Positions 1 through 11,075 of a stretch of DNA of 64,000 nt are shown here, one piece after another (positions within the stretch are counted from its first letter, which is position 1; each line of letters starts with the position of its first letter). The position numbers were made by a program, and so were the translations under genes. Below the pieces are notes generated by a model. The model saw only the letters and a list, made by a program, of their open reading frames with translations. It did no database searches and was not told the DNA's origin. Source of the DNA: an uncultured Planctomycetaceae bacterium (GTDB lineage Bacteria; Planctomycetota; Planctomycetia; Planctomycetales; Planctomycetaceae); the NCBI GenBank assembly GCA_963815195.1, contig CAWFGE010000007.1, positions 288,001-352,000 on the forward strand. Direction: 5' to 3'.

Positions 1-605
1 CGGGTTGGGCGGCGTGTCGGGGAGCGTCAGGCAATACAATCCGTAAAGGATCGAGATGACGCCCGAAACGCGGAGGGCGTCCGCGATCCGCGCCCGGCAT
101 CGGGCGGATCGTCGCCCGCGAAAAACGGCGGCAGAGAATCGAACCGCACATTGGTCTTGAGCCAAAGCATCGAAAACAACCAGCCCGCCGCGATCCAACC
201 GATCGTCCCCCACACCCGCACCAACGGAAACTGCCGCTTGGGATCCTCCAGATGACTCATCGCCAACGAATTGGTCAGGCCCAACGTCGGCATATAAAGC
301 ACGGCATAAATGATCGACAGCATGAGCCAGGCCGCGAACGTCGTTTGATCGGCCAGCAGGAAATTGATGATCCCGCCCGCGATCAATACGGCCGAGAGAT
401 ATTTTTGCGTCGCGAAATATCGGTCCGCCAACTGCCCGCCGAGAAACGGAGCCGCCACCGCTCCAATCGCCGCCGCCACCGCCGCGATCCACGCCACCTC
501 GCCGCCTTCGAAGCCGAGTTCGCCTTTCAGATACCGCGGCAAGATCGGCATCCAAATGCCCCACACGGCATACTGCAGGAACATCATCAAGCACAGTCGA
601 AACAT
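1..605 (-). CDS. MFS nucleoside:H+ symporter family (NupG/YegT-like), 5' part; runs off the window; frameshift near 90
   Basis: MMFLQYAVWGIW, GQLADRYF, LYMPTLGLTNSLA and FPLVRVWGTIGWI motifs. After the frameshift the reading continues as IADALRVSGVISILYGLYCLTLPDTPP. Confidence 0.85.
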
Positions 606-691
606 GGCGTCCCAAGGGGCAAAGGCCACACGGATCTCATAAAGGGAGCTGGGGTTCTTCAAGTCGGAGAACCTCAGATTTCGGAAGGTTT

Positions 692-726
692 TGTCCCCTC
701 TCCCCTTGGGGGAGAGGGTTAGGGGA
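692..726. repeat. REP-like palindrome (CCCCTAACCCTCTCCCCCAAGGGGAGAGGGGAC on the - strand)
   Basis: Hairpin cctctcccc-tt-gggggagagg in the intergenic gap. Confidence 0.6.
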
Positions 727-798
727 AGCGACTGGTTTAATCCGCATCCACTCTTGATCAAATCCGCTCAAGGAAAGAATGGGCGCAAATGTGCCGGT

Positions 799-4519: not shown

Positions 4520-4703
4520 GATCCATTTGAAAATACGGCGAAAGATCATCCCCCGGCCCTGTCGAAATCAGCCGGGCGTCCGTAGGATAACGTGTTGGAG
4601 CCGATTGGGAGAGCCAGGTTTCGCGCCTCGTCATTTTTTCGCCGAACGCCTCCATCGGCTAAAAAATCATCGAGCCACTCAAACGACTGGGCTGAGCGAA
4701 GTG

Positions 4704-5492
4704 ATGCAACACGAACTTGCCAGCGGGCAACAGGTGCGGCGGGCGTGCCGTCGCGGTGAATGGACCGGACCGACGGCGGGGCTGGCGGCGGGGTTTGCGC
4801 AGGCGAACCTCGTGGTCCTGCCGCGGGATCGGGCGTATGATTTTCTGGTGTTCTGCCAGCGGAATCCCAAACCCTGCCCGCTGCTCGAGGTCACCGAGCC
4901 CGGCGATCCCTGCCCCGCGAAATTCGCCCCGGATGCGGACCTGCGGACCGACCTTCCACGATACCGCGTCTGGCGAAATGGCGAACTAGAGAACGAGCCG
5001 ACGGACATCGCCGGCCTCTGGCGGGACGATTTTGTGAGCTTTCTGATTGGCTGCTCCTTCACGTTCGAGTCGGCCCTCTTGCGGGCGGGCGTTCCGGTGC
5101 GGCACATCGAAGAGAACCTCAACGTGCCGATGTATCGCACGAACATCGCCTGCCGATCCGCGGGAATTTTCGAGGGGCCGATGGTGGTTTCGATGCGTCC
5201 CTTGTCCCCGGCCAATGCAATCAAAGCGGTAGAGATCACCTCGCGGTATCCGATGGTGCACGGCGCCCCGGTGCACTGGGGGACTCCGGAAGAGATCGGC
5301 ATCGAAGATCTTTCGCGGCCCGACTTCGGCGACGCGGTGCCGCTGAAGGCCGGCGAAATCCCGGTGTTCTGGGCCTGCGGCGTCACACCTCAAGCCGCGC
5401 TCATGGCCGCCAAACTTCCGCTCGCCATCACCCACGCCCCCGGCTCGATGTTCGTCACGGATGTCAAGGATGAAACCTTGGCCGCCGGCTGA
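4704..5492 (+). CDS. Putative hydro-lyase, DUF1445 / D-glutamate cyclase family
   Basis: [50 protein letters not shown] and THAPGSMF motifs; ATG at 4704. Confidence 0.92.
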
Positions 5493-5508: not shown

Positions 5509-5646
5509 AACGCAAAGGCGCAAAGACCAGACGCAAAGGGCCGCAAAGAAAAACTCTGGCCTCGCATTCATTTTCTGAAGTTGCTCCTCATTCTTCTCTT
5601 GGATTGCTTTGTGTCCTCTGCGTCTTCCCTTTGCGTCTTTGCGTTA
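5509..5646. repeat. REP-like inverted repeat (AACGCAAAGGCGCAAAG...CTTTGCGTCTTTGCGTT)
   Basis: Inverted arms; the right arm plus its flank recurs at about 5893-5970. Confidence 0.7.
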
Positions 5647-5685
5647 AAAAGTTTTCGGGGGCAACGAATCGGAAAATTTTTGCGC

Positions 5686-5882
5686 GGGGGCATCCGAGGA
5701 ATTGGCGCGACCCTGCCGACGGCATCAACCAAGGCAGTCAAACGTTCGGTGCTCGCAATCGGGATTGGTGCTTTCTCTTGATGGGCGACGGCTCCGTCCG
5801 CAAGTTCAATTCGTCCATGGGCCGCAAGCTGCTCAAAGCCCTCAGCACTCCGAATGGGCACGACGACGTGCCCGAATTCTGA
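5686..5882 (+). pseudogene. 3' remnant of a DUF1559 (prepilin/H-X9-DG-type) gene
   Basis: GHPRNWRDPADGINQGSQTFG...FLLMGDGSVRKF...LLKALSTPNG resembles DUF1559 C-termini. There is no 5' part or start; it is flanked by direct repeats. Confidence 0.7.
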
Positions 5883-6109
5883 AAGGTGTTTTCTTTGCGG
5901 CCCTTTGCGTCTTCCTCGCACTTTGCGTTAAAAAGTTTTCGGGGGCGACATATTTGAAAATTTTTACGCGATCGTTGTGGTTCATGGGGTTCCCGGTAGA
6001 ATGCGTGGTTGGGGAAAATGGTTCCCCACCAACTTTCAAACCGAAGATGTTTTTGGTTTCCCAAGTTGGCGGAAGTTTCGCACCCACCTGAAGAGGGAGA
6101 ACATAGCCG

Positions 6110-6757
6110 ATGCGAGACGTAGATAAGCAAGTTCCCACGGGTCCGCCGGAAACCGGGACGCCGCCTGCGGGCGGGTTCAGTCGCCGCGAGTTCCTGAAAG
6201 GCTCCAGTGCCGCCGCCGTGGCCACGGCGCTCGCGACCGCCGGAGCCGAAGCCCAGGCCCAGGACACCAAACCCAACGTGGCCCCGGCCAAGCCGCAAAA
6301 GATCACGCTCAATGTCAACGGCAAAGATCACACCGTGACCGTCGAGCCGCGGACGCTGCTCCTCACCGTGCTGCGGAACCACTTGAACCTCACGGGCTGC
6401 AAAGACATCGACGAGCGCGACGCCGCCGGGGCCGACACGGTCTTGATTGACGGCAAACCGGTGCTCGCCGGCAGTCGGCTGGCGATCGAATGCCAAGGCA
6501 AGAAGATCAAAACCGTCGAATCGCTCAGAAACGGCGAGATGGTCGACGAAGTCATCGCCTGCTTCGTCAAGCACGATGCGATGCAGTGCGGCATGTGCAC
6601 GCCGGGCTTCGTGATGGCCACGCGGGCGTTCCTCGACAAAAACCCGCACGCCACGCTCAAAGAAATTCAAAGCGGCCTGGGCGGCAATATTTGCCGCTGC
6701 GGGACCTACGACGGCATCACCAAATGCGCCCTCGAACTGGCGAAAGGAGGTGCGTAA
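6110..6757 (+). CDS. Xanthine-oxidase-family [2Fe-2S] small subunit (PaoA/CoxS-like) with Tat signal; N-terminal cluster ligands absent
   Basis: SRREFLK twin-arginine motif; QCGMCTPG and NICRCGTY intact; first cluster region reads TGCKDIDERDAAGADTV...VLAGSRL. Confidence 0.9.
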   Translation: MRDVDKQVPTGPPETGTPPAGGFSRREFLKGSSAAAVATALATAGAEAQAQDTKPNVAPAKPQKITLNVNGKDHTVTVEPRTLLLTVLRNHLNLTGCKDIDERDAAGADTVLIDGKPVLAGSRLAIECQGKKIKTVESLRNGEMVDEVIACFVKHDAMQCGMCTPGFVMATRAFLDKNPHATLKEIQSGLGGNICRCGTYDGITKCALELAKGGA

Positions 6758-8903
6758 TGGCGCGTGAAGTTGCTTGGAAACCGATGGGTGATAATGTCCT
6801 CATCGGCACCGAAGTTTCGCGGCTGGACGGCGTCGATAAAGCCTCCGGCTATGCGAAATACAGTGCCGACATCAACACGCCCGGCACCTTGTACGCTCTC
6901 GTCCTGACTTGCCCCCACGGTCATGCGACGGTGAAGAGTTTGGACCTTTCGGCGCGAAGAAAAGCCCCGGCGTGAAGGCGACCCACATCTTTAACGATAC
7001 CGGGGCGGAACTGTTTTGGGATGGGGCGCTCGTCGCCGCCGTCGCCGCGGAGACGCTCGAACAAGCCCAGGACGCCATTCGGGCCATCAAGGTCGAATAC
7101 GAAGTCCTCGAACATTTCGTGGATGAAGACGACCTCCGCGGCGCGGAAGTCGCCAAGCGGACGAAAGAACCGCAGGAATCCAAGAAAGGCGATGTGGAGG
7201 CGGCTTTGAAAAAAGCCAAGGTCGTCCACAAAGGCCATTATGGGATTCACACCATCACCCACTGCTGCATGGAGCCGCACGGCTCGCATTGCGAGTGGAG
7301 CGAGGACGGCAACGGTGTCCTCACCGCGCATCTTTCGACGCAAAACGTGTCGGGGACCGGCGGGCAGTACGCCGGGCCTTTGGGCGTGGATCAATCGAAG
7401 GTCACGATCATCTGCAACTACATCGGCGGCGGGTTTGGTTCCAAATTCGCCGTGGATGAGTGGGGCGTGGCCTGCGCCAAAATGGCCAAAGAAGCCGGCC
7501 GACCGGTGCGGTTCCTGCTCGACCGGGCGACCGAGTTGAAATCGGCCGGGCAACGGCCTTCGGGCTTTGCCGATGTCACCATCGCCGCCGACGCCAACGG
7601 CCGGATCACGGCGTGGGACAGCGTGCACTGGGGCTCGAACGGCATCAAAGGCGGCACCGTCGCGGTGAGCCAGTATCCCTACGTGTTCGATTTCGAGAAC
7701 CGCAACCGCAAGGCCATCGGCATCGAAACCAACACCGGCGATTCCCGCGCCTGGCGGGCACCGAACCATCCGCAGCTTTGTGCGATGACCTGCACGGTGA
7801 TTGACGATCTGGCCGCGAAGCTCGAAATGGACAGCTACGACGTGTTCATGAAGAACCTCGACCAGACTCCGAAAGCCGATGTCTATAAGGCCGAGATGGA
7901 GATCGCCGCCAAACTCATCGACTGGAAGAAGAACTGGCATCCCCACGGGAAAGGCGAGAGCAAAGGGGGGATGAAGCGCGGACTCGGAATGGCCCTCCAT
8001 ACCTGGGGCGGCCGGGCTCATGCCGGGAGTTGCACCGTGAAGGTCAATCCCGACGGCACGGTGGAATCCACCTCCGGCAGCCAGGACATCGGCACGGGCA
8101 CGCGGACGGTCATCGCCATCGTGCTCGCCGAGACCTTCGGCATTCCCGTGGAGATGGTGAAAGTCAATATCGGCTCCAGCAAGTATCCCCGCTCCGGTCC
8201 GTCCGGCGGGAGCACCACCGTGGGCGGCGTGAGCGGCCCCAACCGCCGAGCCGGCTTGGAAGCCCTGTGGAAGATCTTCGATCTCGTCGCCAAGAAGTAC
8301 AACGTCAATGCCGACGACCTCAAAGCCGACGGCGGAAAGATTCTCGCCGGCAGCAAAGTGGTGTGCACTTGGAAAGACGCCGCCCGGCTCACCGGGCCGA
8401 TGGGCCTTGAAGTCCAAGGCCAGGGACCGAAGAACGACGGCCTCACGTCCGACGGCGTCGGCGGCGTGCAGATGGCCGACGTTTCGGTGGACACCGAGAC
8501 CGGCAAGATCAAGATCAACAAGCTCGTGGCCGTCCAGGACTGCGGGCTGATCATCGACCTCAAAACCGCCGAGAGCCAGGTGCTGGGCGCGTTAATCATG
8601 GGCATTGCCTATGCGATTACCGAAGAACGCATCATGGACAAGAAGACGGGCCGGTTCATCAATGCCGACCTCGAAAATTACAAGCTGCCTCGCCTAGGCG
8701 ACATCGGCGAACTCGTCGTCGAGATGTACCAGCCCGAAAGCGAGTACAAACGCGGCGTGATCGGGCTGGGCGAACCGCCCGTGATTTCCCCCGGCGCGGC
8801 GATTTCCAACGCGGTGGCCAACGCCCTCGGCGTGCGGGTTCCCGTGCTTCCCATGACCCCCAAACGCGTCCTCGATGCGCTGGAGAAAGGAGGTAACTCA
8901 TGA
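6757..8903 (+). CDS. Xanthine-dehydrogenase-family molybdopterin-binding subunit; frameshift near 6955
   Basis: RLDGVDKASGYAKYSAD, HCCMEPH, GGGFGSK, AWRAPNHPQ, QDIGTG, SGGS and GLGEPP (catalytic Glu position); ATG overlaps the upstream TAA. Confidence 0.92.
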
Positions 8904-9901
8904 GACCCTTTGAGTATGCCAGTCCGCGGACCGAAGCAGGAAGCCGTGGAACTTCTAAACGACCACCAGGCCAACACCGCCGTCCTTGCCGGCGGGACGG
9001 ACCTCATCAACTTGATGAAACAAGACCTGCTCGCCCCCGCGCGGGTCGTGGACATCAAGAACATCGACAGCCTGAAAACCGTCTCCGCCGACGGCGACGG
9101 CGTTCTCGTCGGCTCGTTGGTGACCTTGGAGGATATGAAAGACAACCCGCTGCTCGCCGACTATCGGTCGCTGATCGATGTCGTGGACGGCGTGAAGTCG
9201 ATTCAGATCCAATCCATGGGCACCGTGGGCGGCGATTTGTGCCATCTGCCCAATTGCTGGTATTTCCGCAATGGATACGGGCTGTTGGGACAAGACAACG
9301 GCGAGTCGCTCGTGGCTGCCGGGGACAATCGCTACCACGCGATCTTCGGTAACTCTGGCCCCGCCAAGTTTGTCTCCGCCACCCGCTTCGGGCCGGCGCT
9401 GATTGCTTGGGCGCAAAAGTGCGGATCGCGGGACCGAAGCCCGATCAGGTCACGCTGCTGCCTTTGGAATACTTCTACGTCACTCCCAAGACGCAAAAGC
9501 AAGGCATCACGGTGCTCTCGCCCGGCCAGATGATTACCCATCTCTGGCTGCCGCCCGCGAAAGCCGTTCGCTCGGCGACCTATGAAGTGCTGGAACTCGA
9601 AGGTCTGGACTGGCCGCTGGCGGCGGCTTCCGCGTGTCTGGAAGTGGACGGCGGGATCGTCCGTGGCGGGCGGATTGTGCTCGGCCACGTCGCCCCCACG
9701 CCTTGGATTTCCGAAGCGGCGATCCGGGCGATCCAGGGCAGGACCATCTCCGAAGAAACCGCCGAACAGGCGGGCGAAGCGGCGGTCGCCAACGCGACGC
9801 CGCTCAAAGACAACCGTTACAAAGTCCGCCTGGCCCGAACCGCGGTCAAACGCGCGGTGCTCAAGGCGGCCCTACAGTTGAACTTGGAAGGAGGTGCCTA
9901 A
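8900..9901 (+). CDS. Xanthine-dehydrogenase-family FAD-binding subunit (PaoB/YagS-like); frameshifts near 8935 and 9410
   Basis: MRPFEYASP, LAGGTDL, GTVGGDLC...CWYFR, RIVLGHVAPTPW and PLKDNRYKV; ATGA overlap with the upstream gene. Confidence 0.88.
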
Positions 9902-9904
9902 GCC

Positions 9905-10135
9905 ATGTCCGAGAAGAATCCCGAACTCGAAATCCTCGATACCACCGGCGAGCGCTGCCGGCATCTCTTGTCTAAGGGCCTGTATATCAACTGGGGCCTG
10001 CCGCCCGGTGAAGAAGCCGCGGGCGATGGCAACTTCTGGTGCGCCCACACGCAAACCATCTTCGGCCCCGACAAACAAATCTGCGACAAAGACCCCTGCT
10101 GCAACCCGACCCGCAGCTGCTACGAAGCCCCCTAA
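9905..10135 (+). CDS. Small Cys-rich hypothetical protein (76 aa, 6 Cys) ending the molybdoenzyme operon
   Basis: GGAAGGAGG Shine-Dalgarno; starts 3 nt after the FAD-subunit stop; CRHLLSK..FWCAHTQ..GPD..C....CC.....C pattern. Confidence 0.75.
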   Translation: MSEKNPELEILDTTGERCRHLLSKGLYINWGLPPGEEAAGDGNFWCAHTQTIFGPDKQICDKDPCCNPTRSCYEAP

Positions 10136-10406: not shown

Positions 10407-11075
10407 ATGCGTTTTGGACTTTTGGCCGCGGCCGCTCTGAGTTTGGGTCTGTTGACCAATGCCCGCGCCGCCACCATTGAGGGCGAATATCTCGAAGCCC
10501 GCACCTGCAATGTTTACACCGGCCCCTGCTTTGCCAACGGCGAAATGGGCATGGCCGGCAAAGAAGCCATCCTCGCCTGGAAAGTCGATCAGGGCAGTTG
10601 GAACGAAACCGCCTTAGACGGCCTGGGCGTCGCGCTCGTCGTCACCGCCGACAGCACGCTGGGCGACGACGGCGTGTTCGGCATGGAAACGCCCGAAACC
10701 AAGTCCGTGATCCTCGTCGATAAAAACGCCAGCGAAAGCCAAAAGAAAGCCCTCGTGGCCTTCGTGAAAGACTCCGCCAAGAAGCTGGCGAAGAACGTGG
10801 TTCGCATCGAAGAAGTCCCCTTTACTTTGGAAAACGACCATGTGGACGCCAAGGGCATGTTCGCGGCGGGCAACATCGCCAAGATCGAAACCCGCAAGCT
10901 CAAAAAAGGCGACTGCGTGTGCAGCAACGAAATCGTGTATTATCAACCGCTGACCAAAGTCGAAAACTTCCACCCCGCGTTTTCGCTGTCGAACAAATTC
11001 CAGGGCAAAGGCCTCCAAAACAACTGGTCCGCCGGCGGCGAACGCAGCGCCTTCCTCGCCACGTTCCGCCGCTGA
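10407..11075 (+). CDS. Exported DUF1326-family protein (putative metal-binding)
   Basis: Signal peptide ending ARA; GEYLEARTCNVYTGPCFAN, LAWKVDQG.W...LDGL and DCVCSNE; GGAGG RBS. Confidence 0.75.
   Translation: MRFGLLAAAALSLGLLTNARAATIEGEYLEARTCNVYTGPCFANGEMGMAGKEAILAWKVDQGSWNETALDGLGVALVVTADSTLGDDGVFGMETPETKSVILVDKNASESQKKALVAFVKDSAKKLAKNVVRIEEVPFTLENDHVDAKGMFAAGNIAKIETRKLKKGDCVCSNEIVYYQPLTKVENFHPAFSLSNKFQGKGLQNNWSAGGERSAFLATFRR

Follow-up and report, generated by a model that had tools for sequence, protein, structure and literature searches.

How does a xanthine oxidase family enzyme dispose of its electrons when the ligands of one of its two [2Fe-2S] clusters have been replaced? The question is raised by an operon in the window analysed here, a 64,000-nucleotide stretch of an uncultured Planctomycetaceae bacterium (contig CAWFGE010000007.1, positions 288,001 to 352,000), which encodes between positions 6110 and 10135 a small iron-sulphur subunit (S), a molybdenum subunit (L), a flavin adenine dinucleotide (FAD) subunit (M) and a short gene, X. 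Electrons in this family pass from Mo to Fe/S I, then to Fe/S II and on to FAD, a wire that is taught as fixed. An earlier note on this DNA had described an enzyme exported by twin-arginine translocation (Tat) whose internal chain appears dismantled; the range it gave, 6110..10135, does enclose gene X, although the gene was left unnamed there and the changes in the FAD subunit were also missed. In the parts of the sources available, Fe/S I is placed nearest the molybdenum cofactor (Moco) and Fe/S II nearest FAD (PMC3864932), and a spacing of about 12 Å is given in a source that swaps the names I and II for the Desulfovibrio enzyme (PMC12316806). Judged from sequence, the operon appears to represent a real, widespread and uncharacterised subfamily within the xanthine oxidase family, where Fe/S II was probably discarded repeatedly and electrons may pass directly from Fe/S I to FAD.

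The emptied Fe/S II site

The S subunit (6110..6757, forward strand; 215 residues) is PaoA/CoxS-like and combines a Tat signal, a ferredoxin-type domain devoid of ligand cysteines and an intact Fe/S I domain. Gap-free alignment to CutS 1ffu_A, 5y6q_A and 1t3q_A located the former Fe/S II ligand positions (6410..6472) and bore out the replacement by D, A, D and G read earlier, namely D101 (GAC, 6410-6412), A106 (GCC, 6425-6427), D109 (GAC, 6434-6436) and G121 (GGC, 6470-6472). The accompanying claim that all four arose by multi-base codon changes holds for D101, A106 and D109, each two bases away from a Cys codon, but not for G121, which is a single base away. The motif C-x4-C-x2-C-x11-C usual for Fe/S II in the family is absent from S, as it is from E. 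coli XdhD, and Pfam reported no ferredoxin-type domain in S. The family's Fe/S I motif CxxC...CxC is present within a Pfam Fer2_2 match, confirming that QCGMC...CRC is kept; motif and orthologue alignment identify its ligands as C160, C163, C195 and C197 (6587..6700). The Tat signal peptide (6110..6259) carries SRREFL at residues 24-29, with cleavage probably after AQA, and scores above the Pfam TAT_signal cut-off, so that S is likely exported via Tat as had been proposed.

The L subunit (6757..8903, forward strand; 715 residues in the congener L102) is PaoC-like and shows the hammerhead and MoCoBD domains, STQ, the catalytic Glu and WRAPNHPQ and SGGS motifs. The Mo-site motifs that the earlier note listed as kept are all present, with GGGFGSK at 7425-7445, AWRAP at 7749-7763 and GEPP at 8769-8780.

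Distribution, recurrence and selection

Among the best 120 protein homologues, a list ranked by likeness to the query, 117 have Asp at position 109 and three keep Cys, which argues that the emptied site of the window is not due to chance; the named homologues are mostly Planctomycetaceae. The operon was detected in 119 of 250 sampled Planctomycetaceae genomes (match at E<=1e-45), and 104 of these 119 were fetched as the orthologue set. Of these, 47 keep the four Cys (one with shifted register) and 57 lack all four; Asp stands at the third ligand position in 55 of the latter (Asp-type) and Ser at all four positions in two (Ser-type), and no other, partial ligand states were seen among the 104 orthologues. 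All four Fe/S I Cys are kept in 55/55 Asp-type orthologues, the SRREFL-type Tat motif is found in 53/55 Asp-type and 45/47 Cys-keeping ones, and the catalytic Glu673 is retained in 45/46 Asp-type L sequences, the lone exception being a frameshifted row. The Ser-type sequences come from the earliest-branching family operons (L185 and L196; genomes G548 and G444), with AGY codons at three of the four positions, and represent a separate route to Fe/S II loss without Asp.

D109 is Asp in every Asp-type orthologue (55/55) and also in E. coli XdhD (25% identical), whose G-S-D aligns with G-A-D of the window, placing the same Asp at ligand 3. This invariance, together with the acidic loop, is what might suggest that other ligands, such as C97, C128 and Asp, continue to hold a cluster or a redox metal in the N-terminal domain of S, C97 and C128 being the Cys of TGCK and IECQ that the earlier note had named as possible substitutes. 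We consider it very improbable. C97 is present in 38/55 Asp-type and 29/47 Cys-keeping orthologues and C128 in 25/55 and 28/47, so that neither is conserved in, or specific to, the Cys-less forms, and alternative ligation is unlikely because neither tracks the loss. The remaining three ligand positions also vary freely (D/Q/E/F/Y/K/S/G, D/S/A/T/I/V and G/S/N), and the two Ser-type orthologues have Ser throughout.

Outside the family, all 16 fetched operons of other Planctomycetota families and two Acidobacteriota loci have Cys at all four positions (CCCC). In the samples covered, a single family, Planctomycetaceae, shows the loss, and the root state can be taken as CCCC because every outgroup has it. 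On a tree of L and M, from which the trait itself was excluded (109 rows), Cys-less and Cys-keeping states are interleaved: 49 rows picked to span it require a minimum of 10 changes, and a single clade of 22 Asp-type rows is rejected by the approximately unbiased test (p-AU 6.8e-68). A tree of S without the loop columns rejects a single clade more weakly (9 changes, p 0.017), and with 113 rows such a tree requires 10 changes. Under an assumption of no regain these amount to 10 losses, of which about six fall on branches of 95 or more and four in an unresolved part of the tree; L140 and L136, which share a one-residue insertion and 15/22 loop codons, may reflect one event. Fe/S II was thus likely lost about 6-10 times within the family, as far as these trees can tell. 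Gene conversion of the loop was considered as a cause of the patchiness and is unsupported, as synonymous identity is 0.52 in the loop and 0.51 elsewhere (1473 Asp-type pairs); a loop match of 19/23 between L145 and L153 is equalled by 21/25 between L145 and L174.

Frame breaks in the window bear on a further reading, named earlier as the case in which the interpretation would fall, that the operon is a decaying pseudogene. Compared with the congener, whose operon is intact, 91% identical across its length and equipped with the same Fe/S II ligand pattern, three single-base indels interrupt L (near 6950) and M (near 8935 and 9409). Short-read contigs from public runs do not support two of the three: an extra G near 6950 is carried by X1 (461 nt, 0 other differences), X2 and X3 (at 6948), while X4 (151 nt, 0 other differences) is without the window's extra base near 8937; position 9409 is bridged by none of them. 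Other broken congeners and relatives (L003, L012 and L013) have their breaks at places unlike the window's. We read the three frame breaks as assembly errors, the third by inference only. Elsewhere in the assembly, an open reading frame for a nucleoside:H+ symporter (window 27-761, reverse strand) stops early and a gene presumed to be argininosuccinate-lyase-like (G000:C23:538956-540441) is split over two frames that overlap, both of which point to additional indel errors.

Selection also speaks against decay. The ratio of nonsynonymous to synonymous substitution (dN/dS) was obtained by simple counting for close pairs chosen from the tree, 15 of them Cys-less and 12 Cys-keeping, saturated or incomplete pairs being dropped per gene. 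Pooled values for Cys-less and Cys-keeping pairs, respectively, were 0.081 and 0.089 for the N-terminal domain of S, 0.074 and 0.039 for its loop, 0.088 and 0.092 for its C-terminal domain, 0.111 and 0.107 for L, 0.124 (14 pairs) and 0.139 (11 pairs) for M, and 0.137 and 0.138 for X; the N-terminal domain of S in the window gave 0.087 against the congener. With ratios of 0.07-0.14 in the Cys-less pairs, the empty N-terminal domain is maintained by selection, the suggestion of an uncharacterised subfamily under purifying selection is sustained, and decay is scarcely credible. The earlier note had asked whether the Cys loss is common to a clade under purifying selection; the selection is borne out but the clade is not, since 47 of the 104 close orthologues keep their Cys and the states are interleaved. 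As these 47 share the same Mo-site residues, the Cys-less forms do not make up a separate functional clade. In L, M and X the separation of Asp-type from Cys-keeping forms reaches at most 0.6 in any column, compared with 0.98-1.0 in the ligand columns of S; both forms therefore likely perform the same chemistry.

Flavin subunit, gene X and the route of the electrons

The M subunit (8900..9901, forward strand; 333 residues in the congener) is PaoB-like and keeps AGGTD and GTxGGD, with G32, D34, G107, T108, G111 and D112 invariant in 46/46 Asp-type and 42/42 Cys-keeping sequences. Alignments to PDB entries show that one Cys, the first, is left of the four in its PaoB-type insertion; the reduced set is common to M of the 12 nearest outgroup operons and of many Acidobacteriota operons, and this loss is therefore older than the family. 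R162, by contrast, is family-specific, being present in 90/90 family M and in 0/18 outgroup and 0/40 Acidobacteriota sequences (0/58 outside). Arg is lost in the family at M233 and also at M231, where only the two Ser-type sequences keep it, and Gln104 is found in 78/90 family M and 5/40 Acidobacteriota sequences. We take CoxM D124 and K185, which correspond to R162 and E229, to be flavin-ring contacts whose charge is reversed in the family. C114 and C119 of M, five residues apart (window 9241-9261 region), are invariant in 88/88 Asp-type and Cys-keeping family sequences; a disulfide or remnant ligands are possible.

Our preferred reading, which we hold tentatively and at a probability of roughly 0.4, is a slow redox hydroxylase, PaoABC-like, in which a substrate would still be oxidised at Mo and electrons would pass directly from Fe/S I to FAD. 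The family ancestor would have remodelled the flavin pocket (R162), after which Fe/S II would have been unneeded for the required turnover and could have been lost on each of those occasions in an all-or-none manner. Asp109 would likely replace the anionic cluster in its nest of backbone amides, so that the domain would stay folded for export via Tat and for assembly, and electrons would tunnel roughly 18-20 Å from Fe/S I to FAD. The final acceptor would likely be O2 or a periplasmic carrier, and the substrate, at a guess from the family, may be an aldehyde or an N-heterocycle.

Several observations are consistent with this reading. The invariance of Asp109 and its recurrence in XdhD fit a role of Asp as a substitute for the cluster charge. 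If the Fe/S I-FAD distance is, as we assume, 18-20 Å, a tunnelling rule gives about 4-1800 per second. Together with the value for 22 Å given below, this estimate brackets known slow turnover, such as the turnover number (kcat) of 68 per minute stated for mouse AOX3 in the available part of PMC3864932. In human AOX1 a change of a single Fe/S II ligand, C44W, is described as yielding an unstable protein (PMC6874515, available part), in keeping with the lack of partial states. The loss also has a precedent. E. coli XdhD has no Cys before residue 190 (K-12 xdhD, L273:11317-11856), so that both [2Fe-2S] ligand sets are missing, yet the sections available report that XdhD, accompanied through purification by a protein of 30 kDa that is putatively YgfM, reduces urate at 10 µM enzyme in a manner dependent on reduced nicotinamide adenine dinucleotide (NADH) (PMC12507026; repeated in PMC12990295). 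The terms '2Fe-2S' and 'cysteine' occur nowhere in the main text of PMC12507026. The earlier note had supposed that a different electron exit, or chemistry free of net redox change, is implied; it is not, because the FAD motifs are invariant and M is equally conserved in the Cys-less operons, and the direct hop is for these reasons at least as likely.

The same reading has to face several points that weigh against it. At 22 Å the tunnelling estimate drops to 0.3-7 per second, and rule and distance are both assumed. The presumed flavin-ring contacts are charge-reversed and the conserved Arg at M104, M231 and M233 mostly gone in the family, which could mean that the flavin is redox-idle or absent. 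G31 of AGGTD is changed in 11/46 Asp-type M (one clade) compared with 0/42 Cys-keeping ones. The retention of X in the Cys-less operons is unaccounted for by a direct hop. The XdhD assay, as far as the accessible text describes it, used 10 µM enzyme and a readout by liquid chromatography-mass spectrometry with no rate or iron analysis, and a co-purified carrier is possible (PMC12507026).

An idle flavin would accord with a reaction that closes at Mo, either as hydration or hydrolysis or as a ping-pong oxygen transfer between substrates; Fe/S I would then be a structural element that also buffers single electrons, and the role of the FAD subunit would be structural. It is unlikely in our estimate, though the strongest of the alternatives. 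The family-specific changes of the flavin pocket predate the Fe/S II losses, and a gene for a putative hydro-lyase turns up repeatedly next to the operon (18/178 loci). Precedents exist in the portions of the literature available: MhyADH of Alicycliphilus denitrificans hydrates enones without an acceptor (PMC3044224), and xanthine oxidase and aldehyde oxidase couple substrate oxidation with nitrite reduction (PMC10420851). MhyADH itself, however, is described in that same source as retaining both Cys motifs and four Fe, the glycine motifs for FAD are invariant in M, and in Acidobacteriota operons that share the WRAPNHPQ/GLGEPP site the Fe/S II ligands are retained (38/39 aligned S).

Gene X (9905..10135, forward strand; 76 residues) lies 3' of M, as it does in operons of both Planctomycetota and Acidobacteriota. 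Its homologues form 304 clusters at 50% identity, and its four Cys (C18, C46, C65 and C72) are near-invariant. No signal peptide was seen on X, it had no Pfam, NCBIfam or PDB-sequence match, and its nearest Atlas clusters are unnamed. A model from a 146-row alignment is confident and mostly loop (predicted local distance difference test, pLDDT, 85.8; an earlier model from 71 close rows gave 51), and neither Foldseek-PDB nor VIA-align wide returned a structural match, which does not by itself make it a new fold. Of 7997 proteins scored, one was a longer fused form, in which a partner domain could not be recognised; a 325-residue FAD subunit that clustered with X homologues was rejected as a fusion because it contains no X part.

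These properties invite the view that X is a fourth subunit, its four Cys binding a redox metal centre close to Fe/S I, and that this alternative exit left the Fe/S II-FAD branch without a necessary function; we rank it next, and likewise as unlikely. Counted in family operons with 500 bases after M, X follows M in 42/43 Asp-type, 2/2 Ser-type and 32/40 Cys-keeping operons, and in 10/10 genomes whose operon lacks X it was not found elsewhere, by an alignment that did hit in other scans. The lone operon lacking both Cys and X, L190, has a damaged Mo site, so that among operons with an intact Mo site every loss of X (two or three events) falls in one that keeps Fe/S II. Against this, X predates the loss: it occurs in 58/251 Acidobacteriota genomes (a count that takes in the unpublished genome G651), and in the 40 such loci fetched, a choice based on X score, X has L and M upstream of it, and 38/39 aligned S have all four Fe/S II Cys, the remaining S not being covered at the first ligand position. 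The pattern 'Fe/S II or X' in family operons is a hint only: counting rows, without regard to kinship, gives p=0.013, and counting events (4 against 1) gives p=0.375. Damage to the Mo site is likewise seen in L182 and L186, two further operons without X, in keeping with a role of X in maturation, and the Cys of X could bind Zn or form disulfides. Slightly more doubtful is the fuller picture of a four-subunit periplasmic class in which a redox centre in X would take electrons from Fe/S I, the Fe/S II-FAD branch would be repeatedly discarded and an Asp plug would have arisen convergently, as in XdhD.

The damaged L sequences deserve description in their own right. In L182 and L186 (genomes G610 and G505) STQ is changed to STE, GGGFG to GSGFG and GEPP to SEPP, and in L190 (G534) SGGS has become SRS-like and His338 is lost; X is missing from all three, and they are possibly decaying or neofunctionalised copies.

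Genomic surroundings and comparison with known systems

Downstream of X lies a DUF1326 protein with a signal-like N-terminus (10407..11075, forward strand), a frequent downstream neighbour in 62/178 scanned loci. It has a conserved Cys-rich motif and in several Planctomycetota (L057, L058, L059, L066 and L067) is fused to a second unnamed protein, which in L006 comes next as a gene of its own and in the genome of the window is located on contig C15. The putative hydro-lyase upstream (4701..5492, forward strand) belongs to the D-glutamate cyclase family and may be a pathway hint or a case of old synteny. Between 5506 and 5970, a short stretch is flanked by two inverted repeats and by a 50-nt direct repeat (5637-5686 and 5921-5970; 88%); it resembles a remnant of a DUF1559-type C-terminus, with no significant Pfam match. 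A scan for promoters and terminators gave nothing clearly above shuffles. The same genome holds other xanthine oxidase family genes at G000:C12:301200-302700, C15:55898-58124 and C23:542871-545615, its two other S genes both having all eight Cys, and xdhC on another contig.

Literature searches, which left most subscription journals and supplements uncovered, found no paper on the planctomycete operon or on a natural xanthine oxidase family enzyme without Fe/S II. The main value of the system lies in sister pairs with and without Fe/S II, a convergent Asp and an unnamed partner, X, in a common operon. Sister enzymes such as L145 and L140, or L153 and L136, share their Mo-site motifs but differ in whether the Fe/S II ligands are present, and such natural pairs make the role of the second cluster directly testable.

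In its build the operon resembles PaoABC (PDB 5g5g/5g5h) and the aldehyde oxidase 5y6q, with three subunits, a Tat signal on the Fe/S subunit only and an insertion in the FAD subunit; the top PDB matches are 5g5h_C for L (E 5.6e-62) and 5y6q_B for M (E 1.3e-31). PaoABC is reportedly co-exported by Tat, the topic of one study. The present enzyme differs in being without the Fe/S II ligands and three of the four insertion Cys, which we take to be a [4Fe-4S] site in PaoABC that is not found here, and in having WRAPNHPQ where the active-site loop of PaoABC reads MRAPGEAP. An XdhC-type gene, paoD, belongs to the PaoABC operon (the PaoABCD system of E. coli is described in PMC2997495, as far as available), whereas here the additional gene X follows M and xdhC lies on the other contig. 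In the congener the NCBIfam equivalog cut-offs are missed for PaoA (131 vs 322) and PaoC (316 vs 1180), as are those for aerobic CO dehydrogenase and 4-hydroxybenzoyl-CoA reductase (e.g. 120 vs 991, 272 vs 995). By these comparisons the operon appears PaoABC-like in build, yet outside PaoABC.

Shortened internal chains are also known from the family in another form. The aldehyde oxidoreductase of Desulfovibrio gigas lacks FAD, keeps both clusters and uses an exposed Fe/S II with flavodoxin, according to the part of PMC10223205 available; the enzyme described here has lost Fe/S II and retains the FAD subunit. MhyADH serves as an example of acceptor-free hydration in the family, likened here by its published description and without sequence comparison.

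The closest parallel to the emptied site is XdhD-YgfM, likewise of the xanthine oxidase family, with the Fe/S II Cys replaced and Asp at ligand 3. XdhD, unlike S, also lacks the Fe/S I Cys, is an S-L fusion without an N-terminal Tat signal and uses NADH. The operon described here has separate S and L, similarity to XdhD below the level of orthology and different neighbours in place of a uricolytic cluster, and we infer that the resemblance is convergent. XdhD is annotated as having an Fe-S binding subunit although both ligand sets are missing; it thereby raises the question of how electrons reach Mo in the recently described gut urate reductase. The same Asp in both enzymes suggests a general structural route to cluster loss.

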